Shown here: in pieces, positions 15,014 through 56,576 of the stretch | How the letters are laid out: the number at the start of each line of letters is the position of its first letter | Numbering within the stretch: position 1 is the stretch's first letter | NCBI GenBank assembly: GCA_000990005.1 | Contig: LBPF01000003.1 | Location: 7,479 to 71,478, forward strand | From: Candidatus Woesebacteria bacterium GW2011_GWB1_33_38 | GTDB lineage: Bacteria; Patescibacteriota; Microgenomatia; UBA8517 | DNA: 64,000 bases | Reading direction: 5' to 3' | Translations under genes and position numbers: made by a program | The notes under the pieces: model-generated | Databases searched by the model: none | What the model saw: the letters and a program-made list of their open reading frames with translations, nothing else | What the model was told of the DNA's origin: nothing

Positions 15014-15017
15014 AGTC

Positions 15018-15087
15018 TATTTTAAGTACTTGTTGAGAATATTAGAATAACCAATATTCCTTATTTTAAGTACTTGTCGAGAATATT
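15018..15087. repeat. 26-nt direct duplication (1 mismatch) of the 3' end of pcrA, copies at 15018-15043 and 15062-15087
   Basis: tattttaagtacttgt[t/c]gagaatatt appears twice; the second copy contains the pcrA stop codon. Confidence 0.8.
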
Positions 15088-16723: not shown

Positions 16724-16741
16724 ATTACTTACAATAGTAGC

Positions 16742-17659
16742 ATGCGGATTATTAAATTTGTTTCACTATTTTTAGGAAGTTTAATAATTGTTTTGGTTCT
16801 GCTATGTTCTAGCTTCTATTTTCTAGCACCTAAATTGCAACAGAATGTTGCAATTTTAGTTTTAGGCAAGGGTGGTGAGGGCCATACGGCTCCAGATTTG
16901 ACAGATACTATGATGCTTGTAAATTTAAATCCAGATTCTAATAAAGTATCTATTTTATCTCTGCCTCGAGATATTTGGATTCCAGCCATTCGTGCTAAAT
17001 TAAACACAGCGTATCATTATGGTAGTTTTGGTCTTGCATCATCCAGTGTGTCTAGTGTTACAGGTATAACACCCAACTATTATGTGGTTGTTGATTTTTC
17101 ACTGTTTAAAGATTTAATCGATACTGTTGGTGGTATAAATGTAGAAGTTGCCAATCCCTTTACTGATGAAAAATATCCAATCGTGGGAAAAGAAGATGAT
17201 CTATGCAATGGAGATAAATTATACAAATGTAGATACGAAACCCTTCACTTTGTCCAGGGTAAACAATTAATGAATGGGGAGACTGCTCTACAGTTTGTTA
17301 GAAGTAGAAATGCGGTAGGAGATGAAGGAACAGATATTGCAAGAGAGAGAAGACAGCAAAAAGTGATTGAAGCTTTAAAGACAAAACTTTTGTCAACGCA
17401 AGTTTTGTCAAATTCAAAGGTTTTAATGAATTTATACGATATTATAATGTCTCATTTGGAAACAAATATTGATAAAGTTATGACACTTAAATTATTAAGA
17501 TTTATTTTTGAATCAAAAGATAACATCAAGTTTTTATCAATCCCGGAAGAATATATTAAGTTTTCCCAAAATAACAAAAGATATGATTTTCAATATGTTT
17601 TTATCCCAGTAAGTGGTAATTGGAATGAATTTCAGAATTGGCTAAAAAAAGGAATATAA
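16742..17659 (+). CDS. LytR-CpsA-Psr (LCP) family protein
   Basis: N-terminal TM; [18 protein letters not shown]...[22 protein letters not shown]...ALQFVRSRN...RQQKVIEAL. Confidence 0.75.
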
Positions 17660-17660
17660 A

Positions 17661-18827
17661 TTACCACCCTACCCAGTCAAATTTATTGATAAATAGAACG
17701 CCCCAAGTGTTTACAATAATGCAGATTAAAAGTAGAAGCCAATTATGCCATCTCGGCCCATTCTGTTTTACAATTCCTTTAATTGTAAGTAACATTAAAA
17801 AAGGATAAAAGTCGACGGCGAACCGGTATCCAAATTGCGAAAATCCAGTTCCTCCGTGAGAGGCTACTATAAATAGTATTATTAAAATAGAAATCCAAGA
17901 TAATTTTGTAACGAGATCTTTTTTAGCTGCAAAGAAAGCATATATAAAAGCAGGAGTGGTTAAAATTATAGACATTCCAGCAAGAGACGGAACAATATAG
18001 GGGAAAGTATCTCTAATTACAGGTAGTTTCAAAAAGAAAATGTTAAAGTTTTTAGGTATATAAGTAGGACTCCAAAGGCCTGACGAGAACCAAGATGAGG
18101 TATTAACATCTGGAATTAAACTGTAACCATTATCAAACGGATTCCCAAACCTTAAATAGTTATAGCTAAAGCCAAATATAGCAAAGATAGAAAATACTAG
18201 AATTAATTTAGTCAATATTTTGATATTTTTAAATTTATTCCAATTCATAAAAATCATAAATGGAAAAACTAATGCTGTATGGCTTCTCGAAAGAAATACA
18301 GATCCCAACAATATTCCCAATAAAATTGGTCTAGACTTTCCAAATATTTCAACTAATGCCCAGGTCAAGAAAAAAGCAGATGTAACTTGGCCTAAATACC
18401 ATACTGATCCAACTGAAGATAAAAACCAAACTATGGATCCCAACCCAATTAATAATCCTGACCAGATCGCAAGTTTAATATCTTTTTTAATTTTATATGA
18501 CAAAATCATTGTCATACCCACAATCCCCATTCCAAATATATGAGCAATAATTTGTTGTGGAAATTCTTTTCCGAAAATTAACACAAACGGTAAAGCAATA
18601 ATTGCCGGCATTGGAGGATTTGTCACATACCATCTGTTGATATCAATCGGAACTTTTTCAAGCCATGGATAAACACCCTCTATATACAAGTGTCCTTTTA
18701 AAAAAGCATCAGCTAATAATATGAAATGGTTAAAAGCCGTGTTTCCAGCGGACGACAAAAAATAAATTATTAATATAATTATTGAAGTAATTATTATTAC
18801 CAACCTAGATTTATGATTTATCATCAT
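17661..18827 (-). CDS. polytopic membrane protein, putative GT-C-fold glycosyltransferase
   Basis: About 11 TM helices; shares YNYLRFGNPFDNGY and terminal ..WGV..IN..W blocks with the 18837-20030 product. Confidence 0.4.
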   Translation of the reverse strand: MMINHKSRLVIIITSIIILIIYFLSSAGNTAFNHFILLADAFLKGHLYIEGVYPWLEKVPIDINRWYVTNPPMPAIIALPFVLIFGKEFPQQIIAHIFGMGIVGMTMILSYKIKKDIKLAIWSGLLIGLGSIVWFLSSVGSVWYLGQVTSAFFLTWALVEIFGKSRPILLGILLGSVFLSRSHTALVFPFMIFMNWNKFKNIKILTKLILVFSIFAIFGFSYNYLRFGNPFDNGYSLIPDVNTSSWFSSGLWSPTYIPKNFNIFFLKLPVIRDTFPYIVPSLAGMSIILTTPAFIYAFFAAKKDLVTKLSWISILIILFIVASHGGTGFSQFGYRFAVDFYPFLMLLTIKGIVKQNGPRWHNWLLLLICIIVNTWGVLFINKFDWVGW

Positions 18828-18836
18828 TTTCCCGAA

Positions 18837-20030
18837 TTACCATCCTAAATTAATTGCCCATATTACTCCCCAAAAATTAACTATAACCGAAATTAGTATT
18901 AATAATAGGTTTAATTTAGTTGATTTGAATCTTAATGCCAAGATTATCATAAGAAAAACAATGAAATCTAAAACAAATCTATATCCAAACTGAACCCAAC
19001 CTTGCATAATATGTAAAAAACTGGGTATGGCACAAATAATACTTGTAATAATTAAGTTTGACTCAAGACCAGGTTTAAATTTAGGTCTTAATGCTAGAAA
19101 AAGAAGTGGGGAAGTAAAAAGTATTCCCATACCAAAAGGTGAAGGCTTTAAATCTTTTACAATTCCTCCATCAATTTTGACATTAGGGGGCATAACTAAA
19201 AAAGTATAAAGATGCAAGCCCACATTTTTAATATCAAAATATCCGAATAACGAAGACTTAGGATTTATGATTTGGCGGATAGTGTAGGGATAATCTGAAC
19301 CTGCGTATTGTAAATACACCTCGTTATAGCCTGTCCTGAAGGGATTACCAAACCTTAAATAATCATAAGACAAAATGATGGGTACAAAAACAAATGCCCC
19401 CAGAAGAAAAAACATAAATCTTTTCTTTTTTCTCCAAAGTTGCAAGAGATAAAAGATACCTGCAAGAATTAACGACATTCTTGTTAAAGCTCCTAATGCA
19501 AAAAATATCCCTGACCAAAAATCAAATTTTTTAAAATGGAAAATTAAAGATAGTGTTATGAAAAAGATAGCTACAATATGGGCAAAAAACCACGTGGTAC
19601 CAACAACTGCAGACCAAAAAAAAGACGTACCAAAACCCAAAAATACTGATAAAAGTATGGAGTTTCTTTTTGAGGTGAAACTAGTTAAAAGTAAATAAAT
19701 TAAACTTATGTCAATTGCTCCAACAAGTATAGACACTTGTTGTTGAGTAATTCCTTTGAAAATTAGGACAAAAGGTGTGAGGAGAATAGATGCGCCTGGG
19801 GGAAATGGAATATAAGTCTTGCCTTCAAATTCTAATTTATCATGATAAAATTGAGGTAGATCTGGTATATCTACCCTACCTTGCAAGATTGACTTTGTGA
19901 GGTATAAATAGTGGTCGTACCAATTTCTTGGTTCTGGGTAGATGTTTTTGTAAATCAAAAAACTTCCTAGAAACAAAATTAGTGGAACTAAAATATGCGC
20001 AAATTTTTTCAAAAATCCTATTTTTGTCAT
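18837..20030 (-). CDS. polytopic membrane protein, putative GT-C-fold glycosyltransferase (paralog of 17661-18827)
   Basis: YDYLRFGNPFRTGY block and similar topology. Confidence 0.4.
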   Translation of the reverse strand: MTKIGFLKKFAHILVPLILFLGSFLIYKNIYPEPRNWYDHYLYLTKSILQGRVDIPDLPQFYHDKLEFEGKTYIPFPPGASILLTPFVLIFKGITQQQVSILVGAIDISLIYLLLTSFTSKRNSILLSVFLGFGTSFFWSAVVGTTWFFAHIVAIFFITLSLIFHFKKFDFWSGIFFALGALTRMSLILAGIFYLLQLWRKKKRFMFFLLGAFVFVPIILSYDYLRFGNPFRTGYNEVYLQYAGSDYPYTIRQIINPKSSLFGYFDIKNVGLHLYTFLVMPPNVKIDGGIVKDLKPSPFGMGILFTSPLLFLALRPKFKPGLESNLIITSIICAIPSFLHIMQGWVQFGYRFVLDFIVFLMIILALRFKSTKLNLLLILISVIVNFWGVIWAINLGW

Positions 20031-22418
20031 AGTAATAAGTTTAATTTTAACATTACTTTGATTATTTTTTCTGCCTTAGTTTTTAGATTGTTTCTTGCTA
20101 ATTTTGGAACTTTACAACTTGACCATGGGACATTTATCGCTTGGAGTAATTCACTGGTAGTAAATGGCTCTAAGACTTTTTATGAAGGCTGGTCTGATTA
20201 TTTACCTGGGTATTTATATGTCTTATGGTTTTTAGGCAAACTTAGTTTACAGGTTCCGAACCTGCAAGTTATATTATTTAAATTACCTGCGATTATTGCA
20301 GATCTTTTGACCGGTTATCTGATTTACAAAATTTTAGAAGGCAAAAAAGGTACAAAAAAATGGGCAATAACTGGGAGTCTGTTTTATCTTTTTAATCCTG
20401 CAATTTTTGCCAATTCATCCCTTTGGGGTCAGGTTGACAGTTTGACCGCACTTTTCTCTCTTTTTGCTGTTTATGTTTTTCCTATCAGCTATTGGCTATC
20501 AGTTATTAGCTTAGCATTAGGTACTCTTATTAAACCGCAAGCCGCATTTATCTTACCTGCAATTTTATATCTTATGATTAAAAACAAAACCTCTTTCTCA
20601 AAAGTTTTGAATTTTGGAGTTTTGGGACTTGGAGTTTTTGTACTTGGTTTTGTGCCATTTAATAACTTTTCTAATTTATGGCAGTTTATAATACAACGCC
20701 TTTCAGCTTCTGCTAATCAATATCCCTACGGGTCAGTTAATGCCTTTTCTCTTTGGGGACTTTTTGGTTTTTGGAAGCCAGACAATATTACGTTTTGGAT
20801 AGGACTTGGCATATCAATTGCTCTAATTACACTAATTACTCTAATTATTTCTAAAAAGAATATCAAAAATGGTGAGTATCTAGTTTCTGCCTTTTCTTTG
20901 CTTATCACTTTTCTTTTTATGACCAGAATGCATGAAAGGCACTTATTACCAGTGCTTGCTCCGCTTTTAATTGCGACTGTGAGCAATCCTATTCTAATAA
21001 TTTCATATCTTGGTTTATCTTTAACTTACACAGCTAATTTATCGTATGCATATTATTGGATAACAGACAACTTCAAAGAAATATTTAATCCAATTTTAAT
21101 CAAAGGATTTATAATTACAAACCTTTCTTTATTAATTTTAGCGATTATTTCGGTATTCAAAAAAATTAATTTAAAAATTAAATTTAACTTTAATAATATA
21201 AAAACGGCAAATTATTTTTCAACTAAAGACATTTCAAATAAATTTGCTAAAATACTTCTCTTTTTAGTTTTGCTTTTTAGTATTTTTACCAGACTATATC
21301 AATTAGGTAATCCCAAAGAGATGTATTTTGATGAGATTTATCATTCCTTTACTGCCAAATTGGTGCTACATAATGATCCTAAAGCTTGGGAGTGGTGGAA
21401 CCCACACCCAGAAGGCTTTGCCTATGAATGGACTCATCCACCCCTATCAAAATTAGGTATGGCATTGGGGATGAAAATTTTTGGAGAAAATTCTTTTGGT
21501 TGGAGAGTTCCACAGGCGATTTTAGGTACTTTATCAGTACTGGTGATTTATTTATTGGCTAGAGAAGTATTCAAAGATAAATTAACAGCAGTTTTATCAG
21601 CTACAATTTTTTGTTTGGATGGTCTTCCTCTGGTTTTAAGCCGTATGGGTATGAATGATTCATATGTTTTATTCTTTTCACTGCTTTCTGTTTATCTTTT
21701 TGTAAGAGACAAAAATTTATTATCAAGTATTGCTTTCGGTTTAGCAATAGCTTCCAAATGGTCTGCTATTTATGTTTTTCCCATTTTATTTATTTCACAC
21801 TTCGTGTTTAGAAAAAAGATAAAAATAAGTTATTTATCTTTTTTGATTTTCCCCGCTCTAGTATATGTTGCAAGTTATAGTTTAATGTTTACAACGGGAC
21901 ACACATGGGACCAATTTATAGAGGTTCAAAAACAAATGTGGTGGTATCATACCAATCTAGTAGCGGAACACCCTTACACATCACCTGCCTGGAGTTGGCC
22001 ATTACTTTTAAGACCAATTTATTTATATGATGGGGGAGATGTTAATGGACAAGTTGCCCGAATTTATGCTTTTGGTAATCCATTTATTTTTTGGTTTGGA
22101 CTTTACTCGATAATTCTATCAATTTTTATATCAGCTAAAGAGAGAATAAAAAAGTTAGGTTTTGTAATTTTTTCGTACCTAATTTTCTTTTTACCCTGGA
22201 TTGCAAGTCCTAGAATAATGTTTTTGTATCATTATTTACCCTCAATTCCATTTTTGGCAATTGCTTCTGGTTTTGTTCTTCGCCGTTTCCCCAAATTTAG
22301 AATTGGTTTATTGGTAATTGGTTTATTGGTATTTATTTACTTTTACCCTCATTGGATAGGGGTAAGAATTCCACTAAAACTTGACGAAAGTTACTATTGG
22401 TTTTCCTCTTGGAGATAA
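19995..22418 (+). CDS. fusion of an N-terminal GT-C-like membrane domain with a C-terminal GT39 (PMT/ArnT-like) glycosyltransferase; true start uncertain
   Basis: C-terminal half carries DEIYHSFTA...EWTHPPLSKLGMALGMKIFGENSFGWRVPQAILG...LSRMGMNDSY, typical of the PMT family. The track start overlaps the divergent upstream gene. Confidence 0.65.
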   Translation: MRKFFQKSYFCHSNKFNFNITLIIFSALVFRLFLANFGTLQLDHGTFIAWSNSLVVNGSKTFYEGWSDYLPGYLYVLWFLGKLSLQVPNLQVILFKLPAIIADLLTGYLIYKILEGKKGTKKWAITGSLFYLFNPAIFANSSLWGQVDSLTALFSLFAVYVFPISYWLSVISLALGTLIKPQAAFILPAILYLMIKNKTSFSKVLNFGVLGLGVFVLGFVPFNNFSNLWQFIIQRLSASANQYPYGSVNAFSLWGLFGFWKPDNITFWIGLGISIALITLITLIISKKNIKNGEYLVSAFSLLITFLFMTRMHERHLLPVLAPLLIATVSNPILIISYLGLSLTYTANLSYAYYWITDNFKEIFNPILIKGFIITNLSLLILAIISVFKKINLKIKFNFNNIKTANYFSTKDISNKFAKILLFLVLLFSIFTRLYQLGNPKEMYFDEIYHSFTAKLVLHNDPKAWEWWNPHPEGFAYEWTHPPLSKLGMALGMKIFGENSFGWRVPQAILGTLSVLVIYLLAREVFKDKLTAVLSATIFCLDGLPLVLSRMGMNDSYVLFFSLLSVYLFVRDKNLLSSIAFGLAIASKWSAIYVFPILFISHFVFRKKIKISYLSFLIFPALVYVASYSLMFTTGHTWDQFIEVQKQMWWYHTNLVAEHPYTSPAWSWPLLLRPIYLYDGGDVNGQVARIYAFGNPFIFWFGLYSIILSIFISAKERIKKLGFVIFSYLIFFLPWIASPRIMFLYHYLPSIPFLAIASGFVLRRFPKFRIGLLVIGLLVFIYFYPHWIGVRIPLKLDESYYWFSSWR

Positions 22419-22426
22419 CTCTTAAA

Positions 22427-23317
22427 TTAGAAGGCTAAGAGTAAGCTACCAAGTATTACAAGTATTCCAAATACTGTTCCAACAATAGTTGGCCATGTTG
22501 TACCAACTGAAGGTAATTCTGGTTCCTCTTCAACACTTGCGATTGATGTAGATGTTTCTGTTGGTTCAGGAGGACATAGACAATCATTTTCTGATAGGCA
22601 AGATGTGTTTCTACAACTTCCTGAAGTTGCGCCACTAGCAATATAGCACATCAAACCATTTGGACAGTCAGTATTTTGAGTGCATGAATTGTTACATTGT
22701 GGATTCGAAGTTGCAGTAGCTGTTGCAGTAGCTGTTGGTATACCAGTGCCTGTACTTGTAGCTGTGGCTGTAGGTGTGGCTGTAGGTGTTTCTCCAGGAC
22801 AGACACAATCTGTCTCAGTTGAACAAGTCTCTTTTCTACACCTTTTGGCACTAGAATCTGCAGAATTGACAACTAAGCATCTAAGATTTGAAGTGCAGTC
22901 TGTATGTGCGGTACACAAACTATTGCATTGTTTGGGTGTTGCTGTAGCTGTTGCTGTGGCTGTTGGTGTTGCACAAATACAATTTGTTTTTGATGTACAA
23001 GCCTGTCTTCTACATCTACCTGATGTCGCAGGCCCAGGCCCTGCGCCATAACAAATCAAACCTGTGGGACAATCAGTGGTTTGTTGACAGACACTGTTAC
23101 ATACTATGTTTGGAGGTGCGGTTGGTGTAGGCGTTGTTGTTGGCCCAGTTACTGTAAATGACACCTTACAAACTTTAGGCCCAGCTGCAGCATTTGAGTC
23201 AGTTGGAGCAACATTTTTAGTTTGGTAAAGTTTAATTGCAGTGAATATTGCAATTCCAGCAAGAACAATAGTTGTTGCTATTATTCCCAAAGTTACTATT
23301 TTATTTTTGTTTTTCAT
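22427..23317 (-). CDS. Cys-rich repeat surface protein with three 8-Cys modules separated by (PTATATA)n linkers
   Basis: Start taken at MKNKNK; N-terminal TM; three C-x3-C-x5-C...GxC..C..C.C modules; C-terminal ELPSVG followed by a hydrophobic tail. Confidence 0.5.
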   Translation of the reverse strand: MKNKNKIVTLGIIATTIVLAGIAIFTAIKLYQTKNVAPTDSNAAAGPKVCKVSFTVTGPTTTPTPTAPPNIVCNSVCQQTTDCPTGLICYGAGPGPATSGRCRRQACTSKTNCICATPTATATATATPKQCNSLCTAHTDCTSNLRCLVVNSADSSAKRCRKETCSTETDCVCPGETPTATPTATATSTGTGIPTATATATATSNPQCNNSCTQNTDCPNGLMCYIASGATSGSCRNTSCLSENDCLCPPEPTETSTSIASVEEEPELPSVGTTWPTIVGTVFGILVILGSLLLAF

Positions 23318-23330
23318 TATATTTATATAT

Positions 23331-24257
23331 TTATTTTCCATACCATGTTCCAGCATAATATACTTCAGCCTGGATATTGGTTGTTCCTGAAGTAACTGTA
23401 TATAGATCATAGAAAACCGTAGCAACTTGGAATTTTTTACTGGCTGTAACTTCAGGTCTTAGTACTCCATTAACTGTAAACCTTGCTTTAGTAAAATGAA
23501 TAGTGTTATTTGCACCATATGCAGTAGGTATTGTCAAATTAACTTTTTGTCCAACCTTTAAAGTTCCTAAATCAGTAATCATTGCCCCTTGTTCAGTGTA
23601 AAGAACTATTGCATTAATACATCCTATTCCGCCTCCGCCTCCGCCTTCAGTACAATCTTCATCATAAAACATTGAGGTAAAAGCCTTATTACCATTATTG
23701 TAATAGTCAATTTGTTCGGTTCCACAATTAAATTCAAAACTGGCGCTTTCCAAATGAGTTTTGTATTCTTCATTACAGCTAGTGCCAAACGGTTTGACGT
23801 CGTTGCAATGGTAGTGGTTAACAAAATCTAAAGGAAAACTAGTTGCAGAACATCCTGTTGCAGTACATGGAGGAGTAAATTGATTTGTTGCTGCTTTTTC
23901 TCTAATATCCTGATTTTGGCCTGTTAAAAATACTCCTGCTCCAACACCACCAACAAGTAAAAATAATCCTAATATTGTTGCAATTACTTTTCCCCCTGCA
24001 AATTTTTTCTTTGGTGGTGTAGTACCCATTATTTCAGGCATAATAACGTCATCACTTGGCGCAGCTGAACCAACATTTGTTGTAACTGTTGCTGGGGTTG
24101 TGTCCAACTGTTCACCGATCACTGTTGACTGTTCACTAGCTACAGGCATTGGGGGCAAAACAGTATCTTCAACTACAGTAGGAAAAGTTACAGGAAAATT
24201 CTGATCATCAGTTTGACCATTGGTTGTTGTTGGTTGATTACTATTTCCGTTGGGCAT
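23331..24257 (-). CDS. membrane-anchored protein with a Cys-containing extracytoplasmic domain
   Basis: TM helix VIATILGLFLLVGGVGAGVFL; eight Cys; G6 run. Confidence 0.4.
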   Translation of the reverse strand: MPNGNSNQPTTTNGQTDDQNFPVTFPTVVEDTVLPPMPVASEQSTVIGEQLDTTPATVTTNVGSAAPSDDVIMPEIMGTTPPKKKFAGGKVIATILGLFLLVGGVGAGVFLTGQNQDIREKAATNQFTPPCTATGCSATSFPLDFVNHYHCNDVKPFGTSCNEEYKTHLESASFEFNCGTEQIDYYNNGNKAFTSMFYDEDCTEGGGGGGIGCINAIVLYTEQGAMITDLGTLKVGQKVNLTIPTAYGANNTIHFTKARFTVNGVLRPEVTASKKFQVATVFYDLYTVTSGTTNIQAEVYYAGTWYGK

Positions 24258-24340
24258 ATAAAAAGTCCTTGAATTAACTTTAACCTTTCATGAAATCCAT
24301 GTCAAGAAGAAGTCGTTATTATCGTCACAACTTTGGAATC

Positions 24341-24855
24341 TTACATGCAATAAGGGGTAAAATTTTTATATTTGATTTCATATCCATCTTTACAACATCT
24401 TGATATTCCTCCTTGTGAACTATTAACACAGTCAAAGTAGGAATTTGGAGTTGACGCACCCCAAATCAAATCCTTTAAAGGAAAATGAAAAGTAATACAT
24501 CTTGTTGGATCGTTCTTATAACTAGGACACATTATTATTTTTGGTCCTTGCCCGACACTATCACATTCTTTTGTAGTTTCTCCACATTTATCCCTCCTGA
24601 TATCCCATTTACATTTATAGATTTCCCCGTTTTTTTGGATGTGGAACATGCATTTGCACAACTTTCTCGATCATAATTATACTTACAACCAGCAGCAGCC
24701 TCTTCTTCAATGTTTTGGTTTTGTTTAACAAGATATAAACCTACTAAAACTGCAACTATTAAAAATATTAAACCAACTATCGAGAAAATCTTCTTTCTAT
24801 TTACTTTATTAACCTTATTAACCTTTGTTTTAATTGTATGCTTTTTTGTTGACAT
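24341..24855 (-). CDS. Cys-rich secreted protein; two overlapping ORFs that join by a frameshift in a T7 run at 24630-24636
   Basis: N-terminal signal anchor and CKYNYDRESCANACS in one frame, continuing as a 14-Cys domain in the other. Confidence 0.4.
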
Positions 24856-26119
24856 AGTGGCTTGCTAAAACTAATCCTATACCAATCATGAATAATCCCA
24901 ATGTATTTGTCAAGTAACCAGTTTCTGGCACGGGAGGCGTGGTTGCTGTTGAAGTTGCAGTAGCTCTTGAAGTTGGTGATGATGTGGCAATTGGAGTTGG
25001 TGTAAAAATTGGTGTTGCTGACGGTGTTGATTCAAATGCTGGTCCTTCAGCTGCAGAGACTATAAAATTTCTTTTTAATATTCTTATTATTCCATTTGCA
25101 TCCGTCCATTTAAGTGTTACAGTATGTTGACCTGGTTCAAGGCTGTTTGGAGGGCTCCAATTCCAACCTCCGTTTTTATCAGTTGCAACAGTTACAGTTT
25201 GAAGTTCTGATTCAACAGATACTTCAATATTGGTTTGAGATGGGCCACTACCGAAAAATTCTGGATTTACTGTTGTTATTATTTCTCCCTCATCAACTGA
25301 ATCGATCGAGATAAAAGAGTTGGTGGGTTGAACTTCGTTTCTGTTAATTTCAAAACGAGAGGAAGCCTCAATTGATTCAGGAACAGAAAGATTGCTTTTG
25401 GGAAGTGATTCTTGATTACTATTAATAGTTCTAAAATCATATGTCTTGCCAAGTAAAATAATTGGAGTTGAATTAATTGCAGTTGGATAAATAACAGCTT
25501 GGGCTGTTCCCTTGGGGCCTGCATTTATACTTATTTCAATGGCTGTTGTTTCAGGGACTGATTCTATATAATTTGATATAGGTATGACCCAACTTCCTTC
25601 TGGAGAGGTAATTGTGGATAGAGTAAAACCGTTAACCGTCAAATGAACAATTGCCTCAGCGGGTGTTGCACCATCCTGTTGAAGTACTACACCTGTAGCT
25701 ATTAAATTGTCTGCTGTAATTATCTGATTTAATGTTTTAGATTGCCATGGTATATCATTGTTTTTATAATCTTTTCCATCAGAGTTGATTGCAAAAAAAA
25801 CATCAGTACTACTTTCAAGACCTAAAATATTTACCAGATGTACACTACTTTGGGAACTTTTTTCTTCAAGAGCGACCTTGCCAAGATTGCCATTTGTTTT
25901 ATTCCATTTAACAAATCCTTTACTTTCTGTATCAGTTGTCCAAGTAACAGTAATGGAGTTATTGGAAATATTTCCGATTCGTACATTTTTAGGTGAATTT
26001 TCAACCTGTGCACCCAATTTAAAAATTTGCCTTGAATTAATTGAATAAATTCCAATAACTAAGCTCGAGATTAAAATTAAAAGGCCTAAAATAGTTGGTA
26101 ATCTTACCCCTTTTTTCAT
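24830..26119 (-). CDS. surface protein with FN3-like domain and C-terminal VPETG + TM + KK tail (sortase-type sorting signal)
   Basis: N-terminal signal anchor; ISNNSITVTWTTD; C-terminal PVPETG-YLTNTLGLFMIGIGLVLAS-HYVNKKAYN, motif encoded at 24917-24931. Confidence 0.5.
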   Translation of the reverse strand: MKKGVRLPTILGLLILISSLVIGIYSINSRQIFKLGAQVENSPKNVRIGNISNNSITVTWTTDTESKGFVKWNKTNGNLGKVALEEKSSQSSVHLVNILGLESSTDVFFAINSDGKDYKNNDIPWQSKTLNQIITADNLIATGVVLQQDGATPAEAIVHLTVNGFTLSTITSPEGSWVIPISNYIESVPETTAIEISINAGPKGTAQAVIYPTAINSTPIILLGKTYDFRTINSNQESLPKSNLSVPESIEASSRFEINRNEVQPTNSFISIDSVDEGEIITTVNPEFFGSGPSQTNIEVSVESELQTVTVATDKNGGWNWSPPNSLEPGQHTVTLKWTDANGIIRILKRNFIVSAAEGPAFESTPSATPIFTPTPIATSSPTSRATATSTATTPPVPETGYLTNTLGLFMIGIGLVLASHYVNKKAYN

Positions 26120-26319
26120 TGGTTTTGTACCCTTCTCTCAATTTCATTTAATGTATCCATGTCCAAATTAGGGTTAATTGGAGCAATTATTTCATTTGAG
26201 ACATTTACAGGACTTTCTTTTGTAAAAACACGATAAATAGTAAATGATATCCAAAAAACAACAGTAATAGTTGTTAAAATTAACAAAATCATTAAACTAG
26301 GTAACTTTGCATTTTTCAT
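26116..26319 (-). CDS. small membrane protein in the pil operon
   Basis: 67 aa, one TM, coupled to pilO. Confidence 0.35.
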   Translation of the reverse strand: MKNAKLPSLMILLILTTITVVFWISFTIYRVFTKESPVNVSNEIIAPINPNLDMDTLNEIERRVQNQ

Positions 26320-26978
26320 ATTTCTGTTTTAACAAATGGCATTCTTCCCAAAACAGTTAGGATTAGAATTTTGCCATTTTCCGTTTTGGTGGAATTTATC
26401 ACTAACGAATCAACTTTTAAAGGTCTAACTAAATTTTCTATGTCAAAAAGAAAAAGAAGTAAGTTTTGATATGAACCAGACATCGATATTGAACAAGGGA
26501 GTTCTTCTGCACCCTGGGGCAATTTTTCAGTCGCATCTATCCTCTTTGTTTTCCCTGCCACCTTACCTATTAAGGTTATATCTGACATACTCAAGTTTAT
26601 TAGCTGAAGTGAATTTTTATTTGCTAAATTTTCCATTGTTGATATTAAGTCTTCAGCGTTGGCAAGGCTTGGGATAGCAGACTCAATCTTTTGAAGTCCT
26701 TCCTCTTTGTCTTGAATAATTTGGTTTGCTTTTTGCAGGTCAAGCAACTTCTGATTAATTTTGACGATTGTTTCTTCCTTTGTTTCAATTTCTTTATTGA
26801 GTTCAATAATTGTTAAAACTGTAGGTTTAACAGCAAAAATTGCGAAGACAATGATCGTAGATAATGATAAAATAAGTTCTAAATAGATTTTAATATTGGG
26901 TTTGGTGTAATAAATCTGTAAGATATTTAAGAAAAAATCTTTGTACCTTAAATAATCTTTTTTCCAATTATTTTTCAT
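26316..26978 (-). CDS. pilO: type IV pilus assembly protein PilO-like
   Basis: Short cytoplasmic segment, TM, coiled coil; immediately downstream of and overlapping pilN. Confidence 0.55.
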   Translation of the reverse strand: MKNNWKKDYLRYKDFFLNILQIYYTKPNIKIYLELILSLSTIIVFAIFAVKPTVLTIIELNKEIETKEETIVKINQKLLDLQKANQIIQDKEEGLQKIESAIPSLANAEDLISTMENLANKNSLQLINLSMSDITLIGKVAGKTKRIDATEKLPQGAEELPCSISMSGSYQNLLLFLFDIENLVRPLKVDSLVINSTKTENGKILILTVLGRMPFVKTEI

Positions 26979-27523
26979 TTCGGTGAAATCTTTCCTGAAA
27001 CAGTAAATACAATAGTATTCGGGTCATCCTGAGAAGTCGAGATTTGAGAAAGTGTAATTTCTGAAAGATTATTTTTTGCTTCCAAGTTGGCTATAACTTG
27101 AGCAATCGAACTTTCTGAAAAAGAAGTAGCTTTAATAGCAAATGATTTATCATTAAAAGTGGTTGATGTAAAAATAATATCTAGTGGAAGTGTTGTTGAA
27201 ATATCATTTATAATTTCGGTAAAAAGAGGTTCATTATAAAGAGATTTGGCGATACTTAACTTCTTTTGAATGTTTTTGAACTCTAGTTCAATATCTTCAT
27301 AGGCAAGTATCTGGGATTGTCCAATATCTAAATCCTCATTTAAATCAGAATTTCTGGCATCTAACCAAAAACGTGATAAAAAGGCTGACATAACCAAAAG
27401 CTCAGTGATAATGACCATAACTCTAAAAGAAGAAAGGGACCACTTAAGTATTCTGCCTAGGGTACTTGTCTCAAATTCATCCTGAGGTAAAAGGTTTATA
27501 AATTTATTTTTTACTTTGGGCAT
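26975..27523 (-). CDS. pilN: type IV pilus assembly protein PilN
   Basis: Conserved N-terminal INLLP motif (FINLLPQDEF), followed by a TM. Confidence 0.7.
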   Translation of the reverse strand: MPKVKNKFINLLPQDEFETSTLGRILKWSLSSFRVMVIITELLVMSAFLSRFWLDARNSDLNEDLDIGQSQILAYEDIELEFKNIQKKLSIAKSLYNEPLFTEIINDISTTLPLDIIFTSTTFNDKSFAIKATSFSESSIAQVIANLEAKNNLSEITLSQISTSQDDPNTIVFTVSGKISPK

Positions 27524-27538
27524 ATACCCAATGTAGCA

Positions 27539-27772
27539 TTATTTTATAAGTTTGGAAAGTTGTGATTTTATTCTAGCAGATTTATTTTTGTGAATAACCT
27601 TTATTTTAGCAGTTTTGTCTGTTAAAGAGACTGCTTTTTCAATATCCTTTTTTGATTTTGTTGATTTAGCCTTTTTAATAGCAATCTCAAGCTTTGTCAG
27701 AGCAATTTTATTTACAGATTGTTTTCTAAAAGACCCACGAAGCGCTCTTTTGGCTGTTTTTGTTACTGGCAT
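27539..27772 (-). CDS. rpsT: 30S ribosomal protein S20
   Basis: AKRALR...KVIHKNKSARIKSQLSKLIK matches S20. Confidence 0.85.
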   Translation of the reverse strand: MPVTKTAKRALRGSFRKQSVNKIALTKLEIAIKKAKSTKSKKDIEKAVSLTDKTAKIKVIHKNKSARIKSQLSKLIK

Positions 27773-27811
27773 GCGGGTAGTATAATCAAAAAAAAAGAAT
27801 ATAACAAGAAT

Positions 27812-29485
27812 ATGATATTTACGAAACTAAAAAAGATTATATTTGCCAAACAGCATACGGTCTTATCTGCCGCAACTCTTATCATGGTCATGATTGTTGT
27901 CTCAAGAGTTTTAGGGCTAGTACGCCAGAGGGTTTTAGCTCACTATTTTGTACCGGATGATTTAAGCCTTTTTTTTGCAGCCTTTAGACTACCAGATACT
28001 ATTTTTGAAGTCTTGGTCTTTGGGACCTTTGCCTCGGCCTTTATTCCAGTTTTTTCTAAAAGTTTAAAAGAATCCAAAAAAAATGCTTGGAAACTAGCCG
28101 GATTGATTGCTAATTGGGGAGGTTTGTTTTTTGTAGCAATTACAACTATTGTCATAGTCTTTGCCCATCCTATATATAGGGTTATAACCCCTGGATTTAG
28201 TAACATTGACCAAGAAACAATTGTTCTAATGGCCAGGATTTTATTTGCAGCCCAGGGCTTTTTTGTAATTTCTTACGTTCTAACTGCAGTTTTGGAGTCA
28301 TCAAAGAGATTTTTTGTTCCTGCTCTTGCTCCTCTTTTTTACAATTTAGGTATAATTCTTGTTACCATATTTTTTTCAAAAGAGCTGGGGCTTTTAGCCC
28401 CCGCCTTGGGTGTTGTGGTTGGAGCGGGGTCACACTTTTTAATTCAGCTACCACTTGCTCGAAAACTTGGCTTTAGGTTTAATAGATCTCTTGCAATTAC
28501 TTCGGAAGTTAAAAAAATAGCTAAACTATCCTTACCGCGAATTATTGAAGTGTCATTTTTGCAAATTGCCAAATTCGTGGAACTTACACTTGCATCTTTA
28601 ATATCAATTCCTGCTTATACATATTTTACTTTTGGTAATACAATTCAACTTTTACCTGTTGGACTTTTTGGTACTTCAATTGCTAAAGCGGCACTTCCTA
28701 CACTAGCATCGCAGGCTGATAATTTGGATGCTTTCAAAAAGACACTCTTTGAAACATTAAATCAGGTGGTTTTTTTGATGGCTCCCATGGTTGCTTTTTT
28801 GATAGTTGCCAGAGTCCCTGTTGTTAGGCTTATTTTTGGAACGGACATTTTTACCTGGGAATCAACAGTCGAAACGTCTTTGGTTGTGTCTGCTTTTGCT
28901 ATTGGAATTTTCTCACAAGCCGCCAATTCAATACTGGCAAGGAGTTTTTACGCACTTCATGATACAAAAACTCCTGTAATAGTGTCAATCTCAACGCTTT
29001 TTTTAAATATCTTAATGGATTATCTTTTTGTCATAGTTTACAAATTACCTGTTTGGAGTTTGGCTTTTGCATTTTCAGTTGCCGTACTCATTCAGTCTGG
29101 AATTCTCTTTGGATTGATTGTTAAAAGAATTCATAACGGTATCAAAAGAACGCTTTATATTCCTGTAATAAAATCATTAACAGGAGGCATAATTTCAGGT
29201 GGTGTTATGTTTTTCATTTTAAAGTTTTTTGATAAATCAGTCTGGATTAAAAAGCTGTCATTTATAAGTAATTTAGATCTGCCTTTTGAAAAATTTGTAC
29301 TTGACACAAGGTATACAGGAAATCTTTTAATTTTAACTACAATTGTTGGCGTAATTGGGGTACTAGTTTACATCTTTATTTTAAAACTTCTAAAATCCAA
29401 AGAACTTGAGACTTTTGTAAATCTGTTTAAAAGAATGTTAACAGGTCAAAAATTTACAACCGAATTTGAAAGGTCAGACCTTTAA
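27812..29485 (+). CDS. murJ: lipid II flippase MurJ
   Basis: SRVLGLVRQRVLAHYFVPDDLSLFFAAFRLPDTIFEVLVFGTFASAFIPVF; 14 TM helices; ATG at 27812 avoids overlap with rpsT. Confidence 0.85.
   Translation: MIFTKLKKIIFAKQHTVLSAATLIMVMIVVSRVLGLVRQRVLAHYFVPDDLSLFFAAFRLPDTIFEVLVFGTFASAFIPVFSKSLKESKKNAWKLAGLIANWGGLFFVAITTIVIVFAHPIYRVITPGFSNIDQETIVLMARILFAAQGFFVISYVLTAVLESSKRFFVPALAPLFYNLGIILVTIFFSKELGLLAPALGVVVGAGSHFLIQLPLARKLGFRFNRSLAITSEVKKIAKLSLPRIIEVSFLQIAKFVELTLASLISIPAYTYFTFGNTIQLLPVGLFGTSIAKAALPTLASQADNLDAFKKTLFETLNQVVFLMAPMVAFLIVARVPVVRLIFGTDIFTWESTVETSLVVSAFAIGIFSQAANSILARSFYALHDTKTPVIVSISTLFLNILMDYLFVIVYKLPVWSLAFAFSVAVLIQSGILFGLIVKRIHNGIKRTLYIPVIKSLTGGIISGGVMFFILKFFDKSVWIKKLSFISNLDLPFEKFVLDTRYTGNLLILTTIVGVIGVLVYIFILKLLKSKELETFVNLFKRMLTGQKFTTEFERSDL
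29469..29483. repeat. palindrome AAAGGTCaGACCTTT spanning the murJ stop codon
   Basis: Same AGGTCAGACCT core as 38088-38098. Confidence 0.7.
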
Positions 29486-38385: not shown

Positions 38386-39036
38386 ATGACAGATTATAAA
38401 CTACAAGATGATTTTTTGGAGGAATTCTTTTCAGAGAACCTTACGTCCGATTTTTATTTAACAGGAGGAACTGCACTTTCTAGATTTTATTTAAATCACA
38501 GAATAAGTGATGATATTGATTTATTTACTCAAAACCAAAAGATTGATATGAGTACAGTAAATTTTTTGGTTTTAAAAATATTAAGCAATCTAAAACTGGA
38601 GATTGTAAAGCAAGTAAATACAGATACTTTTTTACAATATATTACTAAATCTAAAAGCGGTAATACGTTAAAAATAGATTTTGTAAAAGATATTCCAGTT
38701 CATTTTGGTGAATTTAAAATGGTGGATAAAGTTAGAATTGATAGTTTAGAAAATATTGGATCAAATAAAGTATTAACGATACTTGGTAGAAGTGATGCAA
38801 AGGATTTTATTGATTTATATTTTATACTACAAAAAACAAAACTTAAATTCGATTTTTTATATGAGTTGGCTACAAAAAAAGACTTAGGATTATCAGAATT
38901 TTACTTAGCTAATTCCATGCACCAAATTCAAAAAATATCGATATATCCAAAAATGTTAGTTAAATTTGACAAAACTAAATTACTAAAATTTTACTCTGAT
39001 TTAGCAAGAAAACTTCTGTTGAAAATTAAACCTTAG
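38386..39036 (+). CDS. AbiEii/AbiGii-family nucleotidyltransferase toxin (DUF1814)
   Basis: YLTGGTALSRFYLNHRISDDIDLF matches the AbiEii NTase motif. Confidence 0.65.
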   Translation: MTDYKLQDDFLEEFFSENLTSDFYLTGGTALSRFYLNHRISDDIDLFTQNQKIDMSTVNFLVLKILSNLKLEIVKQVNTDTFLQYITKSKSGNTLKIDFVKDIPVHFGEFKMVDKVRIDSLENIGSNKVLTILGRSDAKDFIDLYFILQKTKLKFDFLYELATKKDLGLSEFYLANSMHQIQKISIYPKMLVKFDKTKLLKFYSDLARKLLLKIKP

Positions 39037-41790: not shown

Positions 41791-41826
41791 TAAGACTTTT
41801 TCATGTTCGCAATCAGCTAATATGTC

Positions 41827-41867: not shown

Positions 41868-41873
41868 TACATC

Positions 41874-53945: not shown

Positions 53946-55923
53946 GGAAGAGAGAGAAAATTATTGGTCAATACTGATTGAAAACCAGTGGATTACTTCT
54001 GCAATTTGGCAAATTAAAGGTGGAAAAGTTGAAATTGTTGCTTCTTCGCCAGGTACTCGTTGGGAGGGAGATTTGAGTGAGGCTGTTGATGCTACTTTAT
54101 CAAGTTGTACACAAAGTTTACCTGACGATTTTCCAGATCCATCAAAAACCGTCTTTGGTGTATCTTCTTCTTGGATACAAGATGGGAATATTAAAGAAGA
54201 ATATCTACTTAAATTAAAGAAAATCTGTGGCGATCTTTCATTGGTTCCCTCTGGCTTCGTTGTTTTATCAGAGGCTATTTCTCACTTTATTAAAAACAAA
54301 GAACAAACCCTTTTTTCAGGTATAACTTTAGGTGTAAGTGATCAAAGTTTAGATATATCTGTTTTTGATTTGGGAAAACTCGTTGGTACAACAATAGTTT
54401 CAAGAAGTATCTTAGTGTCTGATGACTTACTCGAGGGTTTAAGTAGATTAACTACTAGCTCACACAATTTTCCACCCAGAATTGTTCTATATAATCAAAA
54501 GGAAACTGAATTAGAGGAGATTAAAGGTGGTTTAAATGAAATTGACTGGGAAAAAGTTGAAACTTTGAAATTTCTTCACGCCCCCACCGTGGAAATACTT
54601 GATCCCAGTGATAAAATCTTGGCTGTTTCACTTGCTGGTGGATCAGAAATAAGTCAGGTAGATGGTATAGAAAATATGCCCGAGGATGAAATCAGAAATG
54701 TTAGTGAGCTTGAAGGTGTTACCGCAGAAGATTTAGGTTTTGTAGTAGACACACCAAATAATCCCAAAATTAGTTTACCTAAATTTAATATTAAATTACC
54801 TAAATTACCTCGGATGAACCTTTCTTTTTCTAGTAAACCATTCATTTTTGGCGGAATATCATTTTTTATAGTTTTTGTGCTGTGTTTCTTGGTTTGGTGG
54901 TTTTTGCCCAAAGCAACAGTGACTATATTTGTTGCTCCTAAAAAACTTGAAAACAATGTAACTATCAATTTGGGTAGTGATTTGTCAGGGGATACAATTG
55001 ATACTTCAGTATCTGGTGAAAAAACTAAATCAACAACTGGAACTAAAACTGTAGGAGAAAAAGCTAAGGGACAAGTAAAAGTTCAAAATGGCACAGCTTT
55101 TCCTATAAATTTAACTGCCGGCACAATACTTCTTTCTTCATCAGATATAAAGTTCGTAACAGCCAAGCAAGCGTCTATTTCAGGTGCGTTGTCTCCAAGT
55201 GATCCTGGTACAACAGTTCTAGACGTTGAAGCTTATGGCATTGGTTCTGAATTTAACTTAGCTAAAGATGAAATACTTAAAGTCGGTAGCTACCCGAAAG
55301 CCGAAGTGGACGCTACAATTACAGCCAACTTTACTGGAGGATCAAGTCGTCAGATATCGGCCGTTTCTGATGATGATAGAAAAAAATTGTTGATAGAATT
55401 GACAGAAGAATTAACAAACCAGGCTAAAACTAAATTAGTGGGACAACTTTCTAGCGAAAAGATGATCGTTGATTCGACAATTATTTTTGAGAGCGAAGAA
55501 GAGGATTTTAGTAATAAAGTTGGAGATGAAGCAACAACTGTAAAATTATCATTGAATTTAAAGTTCATTGCTATTGCCATATCAAAGAGTGATCTAACCG
55601 ATATTTCTAAAAAGACACTAACAGAAAGGATTCCGTCAGGATTCGTCTTAAGAGATGATCAAATATCGTATGTATTTGTAGGCGAAGAAGAAAAGGATAG
55701 TATCACTGTTAAAATTACTGCCAATTTATTGCCTAGTATAAATACAGATGATATAGCTAAAAAGATTGCAGGCAGGTACCCAATAGTCGCAGAGGAATAT
55801 TTACAAAATGTGCCAGGTTTTACTAATGCTGAATTTCGTCTATCCCCACTTCTTAGAGGAAAACTAGCAACATTGCCACATGTAGCCAATAATATTGAGG
55901 TTATACTATCTTCAGAACAATGA
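53920..55923 (+). CDS. bitopic membrane protein with an N-terminal cytoplasmic domain (possibly a degenerate actin-like FtsA/PilM fold) and a large extracytoplasmic domain
   Basis: TM helix about 300 aa in; LGVSDQSLDISVFD resembles the actin-fold phosphate-2 loop. Coupled to the sortase gene. Confidence 0.35.
   Translation: MLDFLKKNEEERENYWSILIENQWITSAIWQIKGGKVEIVASSPGTRWEGDLSEAVDATLSSCTQSLPDDFPDPSKTVFGVSSSWIQDGNIKEEYLLKLKKICGDLSLVPSGFVVLSEAISHFIKNKEQTLFSGITLGVSDQSLDISVFDLGKLVGTTIVSRSILVSDDLLEGLSRLTTSSHNFPPRIVLYNQKETELEEIKGGLNEIDWEKVETLKFLHAPTVEILDPSDKILAVSLAGGSEISQVDGIENMPEDEIRNVSELEGVTAEDLGFVVDTPNNPKISLPKFNIKLPKLPRMNLSFSSKPFIFGGISFFIVFVLCFLVWWFLPKATVTIFVAPKKLENNVTINLGSDLSGDTIDTSVSGEKTKSTTGTKTVGEKAKGQVKVQNGTAFPINLTAGTILLSSSDIKFVTAKQASISGALSPSDPGTTVLDVEAYGIGSEFNLAKDEILKVGSYPKAEVDATITANFTGGSSRQISAVSDDDRKKLLIELTEELTNQAKTKLVGQLSSEKMIVDSTIIFESEEEDFSNKVGDEATTVKLSLNLKFIAIAISKSDLTDISKKTLTERIPSGFVLRDDQISYVFVGEEEKDSITVKITANLLPSINTDDIAKKIAGRYPIVAEEYLQNVPGFTNAEFRLSPLLRGKLATLPHVANNIEVILSSEQ
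55768..55777. repeat. half-site GCAGGCAGGT of the CCTGCCTG/CAGGCAGG palindrome family (encodes AGRY)
   Basis: Right arm only. Confidence 0.5.
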
Positions 55924-56576
55924 GGAATTTAGATAATCGCAAAAAGCGAAATATTATTAAGACTTCTGCTTTTATATCGGGTATATCAGGACTTGTGATT
56001 TTAGTTTCTACTATCTGGCCGATTATAAGTTATCAGTTAACAGAAGGGAGTCGATATAAGACACTTTTAACTCCACTGGTCTTAGATAAAGATTTTACTA
56101 AAGCTTCAAACTGGTTTCCTGAGGCTTCTAAAAATAAAGATTTTGGTAGTTCTAAAGTTTCCTTTTACACAATTTCTATTCCCAAGTTAAAAATTCAAGG
56201 TGCGGTTGTAGCTATTGGCGGAGAAGATTTGACAAAACACCTAATTCAATACCCAGGAACAGCATTACCTGGTAAAAATGGAAATGCAGTTATCTTTGGA
56301 CACTCAGTTCTTCCCATTTTCTATAATCCTAAAAGTTATACTGCTATTTTTTCAACTCTGCCAACGCTTGAAGAAGGTGATGATGTTTTTATTGAATATG
56401 ACGGTATTTCATATAAGTTTAGAGTTGAGGAATTATTTGAAATATATCCCACAGATATTCAGATTCTTGAACAAAATTCCACAGATTCATTTATAACCTT
56501 GGTTACCTGTGTTCCACCTGGAGACCCTAGAAACCCAAAAAGATTAATTGTCAGAGCCAGAGTGGTATCATCATAA
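55920..56576 (+). CDS. sortase (transpeptidase)
   Basis: N-terminal TM; catalytic His (AVIFGHSV), Cys (ITLVTCVPPG) and Arg (RLIVRARV). Confidence 0.75.
   Translation: MRNLDNRKKRNIIKTSAFISGISGLVILVSTIWPIISYQLTEGSRYKTLLTPLVLDKDFTKASNWFPEASKNKDFGSSKVSFYTISIPKLKIQGAVVAIGGEDLTKHLIQYPGTALPGKNGNAVIFGHSVLPIFYNPKSYTAIFSTLPTLEEGDDVFIEYDGISYKFRVEELFEIYPTDIQILEQNSTDSFITLVTCVPPGDPRNPKRLIVRARVVSS

Follow-up and report, generated by a model that had tools for sequence, protein, structure and literature searches.

In the pilMNOPQ operons of Pseudomonas, Myxococcus and Thermus, genes for the type IV pilus (T4P) proteins PilN and PilO stand between pilM and the envelope genes pilP and pilQ, and in characterised systems such as the PilM-PilN pair of T. 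thermophilus the INLLP motif binds PilM. Bacteria of the candidate phyla radiation (CPR) rely on T4P for attachment, motility and probably DNA uptake. To our knowledge, PilP, PilQ and the peptidoglycan binders that go with secretins are lacking in bacteria that have no outer membrane, which raises the question of how T4P cross the wall and are braced at it in such cells. PilQ is absent from CPR (PMC6744442), and the T4P locus of a complete Microgenomates genome lists pilM without pilN or pilO (PMC7143001). Here we describe an operon in a 64-kb stretch of Woesebacteria DNA (hereafter the window; coordinates are positions in it, and the genes under study are all on its minus strand) in which pilN and pilO are followed by genes that we label g3 to g7, g5 being a Cys-rich gene in a slot between g4 and g6. 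Contig LBPA01000003.1 of Candidatus Woesebacteria bacterium GW2011_GWA1_33_30 (Microgenomates/CPR, Rifle groundwater) contains the sequence of the window without a difference.

We are highly confident of the descriptive claim, which is that this is a conserved pilNO operon carrying four lineage-specific envelope proteins, g3, g4, g6 and g7. As to their function, our preferred account, which we regard as possible though still short of probable, is that the four proteins form an extracytoplasmic, wall-linked extension of the PilMNO platform. Being strictly conserved and coupled to PilN and PilO, they are candidates, open to experimental test, for the outer part that the machine otherwise lacks, and g6 and g7 are also candidates for variable surface modules that may meet the host.

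Gene order and conservation of the unit

The unit reads rpsT-pilN-pilO-g3-g4-(variable slot)-g6-g7 and is specific to the Woesebacteria lineage (Table 1). Successive genes overlap by 4 nt each at pilN/pilO, pilO/g3 and g3/g4, by 26 nt at g4/g5 and by 11 nt at g6/g7, and an 83-nt gap separates g5 from g6. The original prediction had seven tightly coupled minus-strand genes here, and the open reading frames (ORFs) do lie at the positions it gave; g5, however, is not a single ORF, and the gap lies before g6. Only 15 nt separate pilN from the gene for ribosomal protein S20, rpsT, which precedes it on the same strand. Since every relative has this arrangement as well, rpsT is probably the first gene of the transcription unit. 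We infer co-transcription of the whole row from rpsT to g7; a promoter and terminator scan of the locus gave signal no better than chance. GC content is 0.355-0.368 across 22001-26000, against ~0.31-0.32 in the flanking 2-kb bins. This rise falls where g4, g6 and g7 encode Thr/Pro/Ala-rich sequence, so it is probably compositional and not a sign of foreign DNA.

Table 1. Features of the locus. Identity is the median identity to the window protein over 47 loci carrying all genes, given with query coverage. TM, transmembrane.
Feature	Position	Strand	Description	Median identity	Query coverage
MurJ gene			Divergent neighbour	62%	98%
rpsT	27539..27772	-	Ribosomal protein S20; ORF; Pfam Ribosomal_S20p on the identical gene	65%	99%
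pilN	26975..27523	-	182 aa, bitopic; Pfam PF05137	48%	97%
pilO	26316..26978	-	220 aa, bitopic; Pfam PF04350	42%	98%
g3	26116..26319	-	67 aa, bitopic, one TM segment (residues 10-28)	47.5%	96%
g4	24830..26119	-	429 aa, no Cys; FN3/Ig stalk and PVPETG ending	43.5%	~100%
g4 N-terminal helix	residues 7-30		Conserved
g4 FN3 domain	residues 44-128
g4 second beta-sandwich	residues 140-228
g4 disordered segment	residues 236-266
g4 Big_13 Ig domain	residues 279-354
g4 T/P/S/A-rich linker	residues 358-394		Disordered in model
g4 PVPETG	residues 396-401; 24917-24934
g4 C-terminal helix	residues 403-426; 24842-24913		Followed by KK tail
g5	24341..24855	-	Cys-rich secreted/membrane protein gene, broken by a 1-nt frameshift
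g6	23331..24257	-	308 aa, 7 Cys, TM near residues 87-110	38%	73%
g7	22427..23341	-	304 aa (NCBI call), 25 Cys (1 + 3x8), LPSVG and helix ending	38.5%	96%
g7 8-Cys modules (three)	22973-23101, 22799-22927, 22574-22696	-
g7 LPSVG	22502-22516	-	Within ELPSVG
g7 C-terminal hydrophobic helix	22430-22501	-	Without basic tail
PMT-type gene	19995..22418	+	GT39/PMT-type protein O-mannosyltransferase-like; Pfam PMT, PMT_2, PMT_4TMC; convergent with g7	58%	98%
Sortase gene	55920..56576	+	218 aa, N-terminal TM; candidate processing enzyme, 29 kb from the operon

Two samples of relatives define how strictly these genes stay together. In the first, anchored on g4 and made up of 27 species-representative Woesebacteria/Microgenomates loci with g4 identities of 37-71%, the order is the same in 27/27: MurJ (divergent), rpsT, pilN, pilO, g3, g4, g6 and g7, and then the convergent GT39/PMT gene, although in three loci, among the most divergent, g6 itself scored too low to pass the search threshold. 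Because a g4 anchor is unable to show pilNO without g4, a second sample, drawn from metagenome contigs, was anchored on PilN; the PilN-profile scan behind it, like a PilN homolog search, yielded only relatives at 42% identity or more. There pilO, g3 and g4 are present in 42/42 loci with at least 2.6 kb of downstream flank, and g6 and g7 in 29/29 loci with at least 5.5 kb. The retention of the downstream genes beside pilNO, which the original prediction had proposed as its own check, is thus found throughout both samples. The PMT gene stands beside g7 in 26 of those 29 PilN-anchored loci and in 24 of the 27 g4-anchored ones, and S20 is encoded upstream of pilN in 27/27 genome loci and nearly all metagenome loci. 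Inside this clade, the association of pilNO with the downstream genes is as strict as possible.

Both g3 and g4 are single-copy, constant in length and conserved about as well as PilN and PilO. By this measure they evolve like the PilN and PilO to which they are coupled, and their pattern is that of machine parts and not of adhesins. In this unit it is the ectodomains of g6 and g7 that diversify.

The identities of PilN and PilO themselves are secure at the level of curated families. PilN matches Pfam PF05137 at 32.9 bits (cutoff 22.8, E=6.6e-8) and PilO matches PF04350 at 34 bits (cutoff 22, E=3.8e-8), so the original reading of these genes as pilO and an INLLP-bearing pilN agrees with scores above the gathering thresholds for both. 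The N-terminus of PilN, MPKVKNKFINLLPQDEF, carries INLLP at residues 9-13 (27485-27499; context KFINLLPQDEF at residues 7-17), ahead of a TM segment placed by hydropathy near residues 30-53, and INL[LI]P is found in PilN of 27/27 relatives. PilO also matches the M. xanthus PilO structure 3jc8 (E=7.4e-4), and a PDB sequence search with PilN gave no match. PilM, PilP and PilQ, correctly expected to be missing from the locus, have no match among the scanned ORFs of at least 120 aa, which are most such ORFs in the window. The invariance of INLLP in PilN argues that the PilN/PilO pair works with a PilM-containing T4P machine.

The downstream envelope proteins

All six products of the unit are bitopic, with an N-in/C-out orientation and conserved TM helices, which favours a membrane complex. 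The first of the downstream proteins, g3, is the small TM protein that had been noticed after pilO. It has no Pfam or NCBIfam match, carries a conserved external motif (P-x-N/S-P-x-L-D), and has an ortholog in 27/27 genome loci and 42/42 metagenome loci. The slot that it occupies is the one that pilP holds in pilMNOPQ operons. A stronger form of our preferred account would make g3 and g4, together with g6 and g7, the monoderm CPR replacement of PilP and PilQ, in the form of a wall-spanning collar or strut that sortase fixes covalently to peptidoglycan and that ties the PilMNO platform of the pilus to the wall. We consider this rather unlikely. If true, it would be the first time that a type IV filament machine is seen to have a structural component that depends on sortase, and it would provide a protein fixed at both ends, with its N-terminal helix in the membrane and its C-terminus on the wall.

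In the AlphaFold2 model of g4 (mean predicted local distance difference test score, pLDDT, 80.4), the N-terminal helix is followed by three beta-sandwich domains, and a disordered linker joins the last of these to the C-terminal motif and helix. The protein had been described as FN3-like and as ending in PVPETG, a TM helix and KK; these coordinates and this ending hold, the C-terminus being PVPETGYLTNTLGLFMIGIGLVLASHYVNKKAYN, and three FN3/Ig domains are modelled. Its family comprises 410 homologs of near-constant length (~430 aa) that are alignable end to end. The family alignment (A1) has 43 invariant columns, which include P8, L16 and A37 of the N-terminal helix region, and this region is conserved beyond expectation for a discarded signal peptide. 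In a Foldseek search against the PDB (entries to April 2026), the top 50 matches listed are generic FN3 arrays only; in fold searches g4 resembles the stalks of large adhesins, e.g. SiiE and the extender domains of ice-binding adhesins.

A near-invariant motif, AAEGPAFESTPSATP, lies at residues 355-369 of g4 (~25013-25057, minus strand), at the start of the linker that is predicted to be disordered. Its invariant or near-invariant residues are A356, E358, G359, P360, A361, F362, T365 and S367. Such a motif is unexpected for a spacer, and it could be a binding, processing or glycosylation site.

The Cys-containing membrane protein foreseen further downstream corresponds to g6, which is bitopic with 7 Cys. 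Its cytoplasmic tail of ~85 aa has the conserved motifs MPNxN, LPPM and GSAAPxDD, and its Gly-rich TM segment, KKKFAGGKVIATILGLFLLVGGVGAGV (residues 87-110; 23928-23999), is extremely conserved. After the TM segment comes a variable Cys-rich region, and then a conserved C-terminal beta-sandwich at residues 212-308 (23334-23624). The family has 119 homologs (alignment A2). The AlphaFold2 model is confident only at residues 212-308 (pLDDT 86-96 from residue 221), with the TM helix at residues 93-109 modelled as a helix at pLDDT ~55. Nothing in the PDB matched this model below E=1e-3, the best being weak CBM-like or FN3-like similarities at ~0.06, and neither g6 nor g7 has a Pfam or NCBIfam match.

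The last protein of the unit, g7, whose family has 344 representatives, begins with an N-terminal TM segment which, like the juxtamembrane stretch after it, is conserved; a short strand with Cys and mucin-like T/P/A/S linkers, between which the 8-Cys modules are set, make up the rest of its ectodomain. The original prediction was right about the three modules, the T/A/P linkers and the ELPSVG-plus-helix ending, and wrong about the TTG start at 23425, which is over-extended: homolog alignments begin at or after the ATG at 23341. The module has the consensus CNxSCTxNxDCPSGLxCYIxSGxTSGxCRNTxCLSETDCxC and occurs in 0-3 copies in g7 homologs. No relative of g7 or of its module was found in Pfam, NCBIfam or the sequences of the PDB. 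In one g6 homolog (P0207), a g7-type 8-Cys module is inserted in the conserved C-terminal domain (alignment A2 columns ~735-800), which indicates that the module is mobile between proteins of this operon. MdbA/VKOR-type oxidoreductases are enriched in CPR (PMC6744442) and could form the disulfides of g6 and g7.

Another variable element is g5, which had been taken for a secreted protein with 14 Cys. A 1-nt frameshift at 24630-24636, in a run of seven A (A7), breaks the gene into one frame at 24535-24855 with 3 Cys and a second, overlapping it, at 24341-24661 with 11 Cys, of which 2 lie upstream of the shift. With one A inserted, the gene encodes 171 aa including 12 Cys, and the alignment of this repaired protein with an uninterrupted 200-aa ORF of the relative L010 (71% g4 identity) continues through the shift site. 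Six independent assemblies, made from different samples with different pipelines, all have the same A7 tract; this rules out an assembly error, and the tract is a real lesion or a slippage site. Either A8 or -1 slippage would restore the 171-aa, 12-Cys product, so that g5 could be either a pseudogene that has become fixed or a phase-variable surface protein under the control of slippage. The g4-g6 slot is occupied by variable Cys-rich genes, and g5 itself is not conserved, being absent from most relatives.

These variable parts bear on the idea, already present in the original prediction for pilus-displayed proteins, that the downstream products are host-attachment adhesins, either displayed on pili or anchored by sortase, and that they are co-expressed with pilNO for regulation. 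The ectodomains of g6 and g7 are indeed variable and Cys-rich, with 0-3 modules in g7 and one inserted in P0207, variable Cys-rich genes fill the g4-g6 slot, g4 resembles large-adhesin stalks in fold searches, and T4P have been implicated in CPR host attachment (PMC11623550). We nevertheless find this explanation unlikely. The N-termini of g3, g4, g6 and g7 have no G-F/M-T-L-x-E and no match to a pilin family in Pfam or NCBIfam; a type IV pilin identity was rejected for all four in the absence of a class III signal, and display as a pilin is correspondingly unlikely. Moreover, g3 and g4 are as conserved as PilN and PilO, in the manner of machine parts, single-copy and length-constant, and are translationally coupled to pilO. 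In g6 and g7, the cytoplasmic motifs and the TM helices are strongly conserved, which speaks for a membrane complex and against free adhesins. The adhesin explanation keeps some weight for g6 and g7 and is a poor fit for g3 and g4, for which we continue to favour a structural part in the pilus platform.

Sorting-like C-termini and the sortase

Two of the four proteins end in a way that resembles a sortase signal. In g4, (T/V/L)-P-E/D-T/S-G followed by a hydrophobic helix and a K/R tail is kept in 111 of 117 full-length homologs, and the helix and K/R tail are present in all of them. Close relatives have S/N-L-T-P-T after the pentapeptide, then the helix and a K/R-containing tail; relatives further away, at 37-43% identity, still have G-x-L-T-P-T and the helix. 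In the g7 family, LPx[A/S/V]G is found in 117/150 members (variants LPxAG 57, LPxSG 35, VPxAG 9, LPxVG 7 and LPxTG 2), and is followed by x3-P-T and a helix that closes the protein. The core common to g4 and g7 is P-x-x-G-x3-P-T plus helix.

A motif scan of 2,954 stop-to-stop ORFs of at least 80 aa, from ~1.2 Mb of related loci, recovered this motif-plus-helix ending in 69 g4 proteins, 57 g7 proteins, 2 g7-like paralogs, 9 copies of a small downstream protein and 3 apparently spurious ORFs. Within the window, only g4 and g7 have it. In these loci the ending is almost confined to the products of this operon. The unit also suggests P-x-[TSA]-G-x3-P-T as a candidate lineage-specific sorting motif for the Microgenomates sortase.

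The small downstream protein, of ~100 aa, is encoded just after g7 in nine loci of one subclade (L078, L080, L094, L098, L099, L105, L106, L108 and L110; ~11.7-12.4 kb). It ends in ...YYPFDRFFPQSG(K/R)WS, a hydrophobic helix and KGG, that is, in P-x-S-G with a helix and a basic ending, and would be a third unit product with a sorting-like C-terminus. It has no counterpart in the window, where the gap between g7 and the PMT gene is 8 nt.

Sortases are near-ubiquitous in Microgenomates (PMC6744442). The sortase gene that had been pointed out in the window is genuine by family and by active site: it matches Pfam Sortase (PF04203) at E=4.7e-25 and TIGR01076 at 51.7 (cutoff 39.35), and its catalytic triad is intact, with His in IFGHS, Cys in TLVTC and Arg in RLIVRAR. 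No class-specific NCBIfam sortase model reaches its cutoff, the best being class C (57.7 vs 160), and the structures in the PDB most closely related to it are sortases of classes D and C. The gene is translationally coupled to a preceding one at 53920-55923 (+), which overlaps its start by 4 nt and encodes a 667-aa protein with a cytoplasmic N-terminal part of ~300 aa without a family match, one TM segment and an external part of ~330 aa. The external part has a weak, below-cutoff match to Baseplate_J-like (E=8.5e-4). Having no C-terminal sorting motif, the 667-aa protein is not an obvious sortase substrate.

Three Ig-like domains and an LPXTG-like signal would also suit a shaft pilin of a Gram-positive-type, sortase-assembled pilus, with pilNO as bystanders, and the sortase does score best, below cutoff, against the class C model and resembles the Ebp class C structure. 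To this possibility we give hardly any credence. The conserved columns of g4 show neither an E-box nor a pilin motif of the YPKN type, the operon contains no sortase and the window only one sortase gene, and the N-terminal helix of g4 is conserved. Identity of g4 with a Gram-positive sortase pilin was rejected, there being no pilin structures among its top fold matches and no pilin motifs.

Sortase processing of g4 and g7, on which the wall linkage of g4 in our preferred account depends, is plausible as judged from sequence: a sortase is nearly universal in Microgenomates, the triad is intact, the FemAB-family gene in the neighbourhood may supply a cross-bridge as acceptor, and motifs with a first position other than L are known elsewhere, as in the (S/P)PXTG of C. 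difficile SrtB.

Envelope neighbourhood, proposed mechanism and comparison with known systems

The genes that flank the unit (13299-22418 and 27719-29485) are mostly of envelope biogenesis types, and they are conserved: MurJ, divergent; the PMT gene, convergent; an LCP gene (LytR_cpsA_psr); and the FemAB-family gene. Against the NCBIfam model Pmt, the PMT-type protein scores 5.6e-23, below cutoff. It is a candidate for glycosylating the T/P/S/A linkers. Two polytopic proteins of ~390 aa, encoded on the far side of the PMT gene, have weak matches to a putative-glycosyltransferase family, and Pfam and NCBIfam searches with these two gave nothing useful. Taken together, these neighbours suggest that the T/P/S/A linkers may be glycosylated and that cross-bridges for sortase may be made. 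Toxin-antitoxin-type or defence-type genes are scattered through the window (3144-3551, 38386-39036, 41787-42908 and 45301-45720), amid housekeeping genes, and encode two PIN-domain proteins, an AbiEii-family nucleotidyltransferase and a Fic/DOC protein.

This setting could mean that the unit is a pilus-independent envelope-biogenesis module, in which PilN/PilO-like proteins scaffold the wall glycoproteins g4 and g7. The glycoprotein pathway of Actinomyces GspA uses sortase and LCP, and the locus can be likened to it, with MurJ, PMT, the glycosyltransferase-like polytopic proteins, LCP and FemAB conserved nearby. T/P/S/A-rich linkers are typical of O-glycosylated wall proteins, and there is no other pil gene among the scanned ORFs of the window. 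We judge this module quite improbable, as INLLP, which binds PilM elsewhere, is invariant, and PilN and PilO pass curated Pfam cutoffs. In addition, the Microgenomates T4P loci that have been described have pilM without pilN or pilO (PMC7143001), so that a PilN/PilO pair is needed there.

We hypothesize instead that the unit belongs to the pilus machine. PilN and PilO would be the membrane alignment proteins of the T4P, and PilM and the ATPases, encoded elsewhere, would dock on the INLLP of PilN. In a walled cell without an outer membrane, PilP or PilQ, the outer part of the machine would be formed by g3, g4, g6 and g7. Of these, g3 could be a small PilNO-associated adaptor in the pilP position, and g4 a rigid stalk of three beta-sandwich domains whose N-terminal helix stays in the membrane beside PilN and PilO. 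The housekeeping sortase would cut the xP(E/D)(T/S)G signal of g4 and join the protein to a peptidoglycan cross-bridge, making it a covalent strut from membrane to wall that braces the platform against the forces of extension and retraction. The ectodomains of g6 and g7, which are variable, disulfide-rich and probably O-glycosylated, would be exposed at the surface and could contact hosts or substrates. The physical complex, the sortase cleavage, the glycosylation and the anchoring role in this scheme are what we infer from the patterns described above.

A number of observations weigh against this hypothesis. The envelope-biogenesis neighbourhood fits a role unrelated to pili equally well, and the FN3/Ig folds of g4 are generic. 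PilM and the remaining T4P genes are outside the window, and this pilNO pair may not be the only one in the genome. The sortase is 29 kb away and unlinked to the operon. The motif is not a canonical LPXTG, and no NCBIfam LPXTG-anchor or other CTERM-sorting model matches g4 or g7. At 37-43% identity, the g4 pentapeptide degenerates to PxSG, PDAG, TPVAG and IDAG, and a basic residue near the end of g7 occurs in only 1/117 family members. Conservation is unusually high in the g4 helix that follows the motif, where F410 and G413 never vary, which is odd for a discarded peptide; the helix may be retained, or it may be read by a different sorting enzyme.

The machine could also act in another way, as a piston resembling a type II secretion system that works through the wall, with the downstream genes as its cargo. 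T4P-dependent secretion has a precedent in BsaC of C. perfringens (PMC11580942), and the folded ~45-kDa g4 and the disulfide-rich ectodomains of g6 and g7 would have to cross the wall. This seems very improbable to us: BsaC is soluble, whereas all the proteins proposed here as cargo have a conserved membrane anchor, the cargo operon of C. perfringens is unlinked to pilNO, and the constant coupling of g3 and g4 to pilO better fits a structural role, as in the platform extension that we favour.

Among described systems, the pilMNOPQ operons of Pseudomonas, Myxococcus and Thermus are similar in that an INLLP-bearing PilN is followed by a translationally coupled PilO and then by two more envelope genes, in the small pilP and large pilQ positions, and in the presumed role of linking an inner-membrane platform to the outer envelope layers. 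The locus described here differs in that pilM is not adjacent, that there is no outer membrane, that g4 is an FN3/Ig stalk with a sortase-like signal, that g6 and g7 also belong to the unit, and that rpsT starts it. Neither g3 nor g4 resembles PilP or PilQ in sequence or fold, and homology to them was rejected, there being no profile or fold similarity to PilP or a secretin.

The T4P of Gram-positive bacteria (C. perfringens and S. sanguinis) provide the comparison among monoderms. There too PilM, PilN and PilO are the sole known alignment proteins and the machine has to deal with a thick wall, and one system ties T4P proteins to the passage of surface or matrix proteins (PMC11580942). In those bacteria, however, pilMNO lie together in a pil cluster without conserved wall-anchor proteins encoded alongside. 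The BsaC cargo operon of C. perfringens is unlinked, and its products have no xPxTG-plus-helix ending.

With LPXTG-type substrates, including non-canonical ones such as those of C. difficile SrtB and the A. oris glycoprotein GspA, g4 and g7 share P-x-T/S-G, the helix, the K/R tail of g4, a T/P/S-rich wall-spanning linker, a His/Cys/Arg sortase in the genome, and LCP and glycosyltransferase genes nearby. They differ in the first position of the g4 motif (T/V/P, not L), in the fourth position of the g7 motif (A/S/V), in the lack of a basic tail in g7, and in the strong conservation of the N-terminal and post-motif helices. There is no NCBIfam LPXTG-anchor match, and the sortase fits no defined class.

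The Pam pili of CPR (bioRxiv 10.64898/2026.03.03.709456) are likewise CPR-specific, have Ig-like domains and paired cysteines, and are reported in Microgenomatia, and PamR has FnIII domains with a C-terminal TM helix. Unlike the proteins of this unit, they are donor-strand-exchange pilins with chaperone-like PamC/D, encoded in an operon beside ATP synthase genes. The Pam paper makes no mention of PilN or PilO and mentions sortase once, as background on Gram-positive pili (bioRxiv 10.64898/2026.03.03.709456). Identity with the Pam pilus operon was rejected on the different genes and context, a comparison made by description and not by Pam sequences.

In our literature search we found no description of this rpsT-pilNO-g3-g7 unit, and public annotation lists g4 as 'Ig-like domain-containing protein' and the other downstream proteins as hypothetical. 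PilN, PilO, sortase and FN3/Ig surface proteins are all of kinds already known. What appears to be new is their strict, translationally coupled association, the possibly double-anchored proteins, and the non-canonical sorting-like motif that they have in common.

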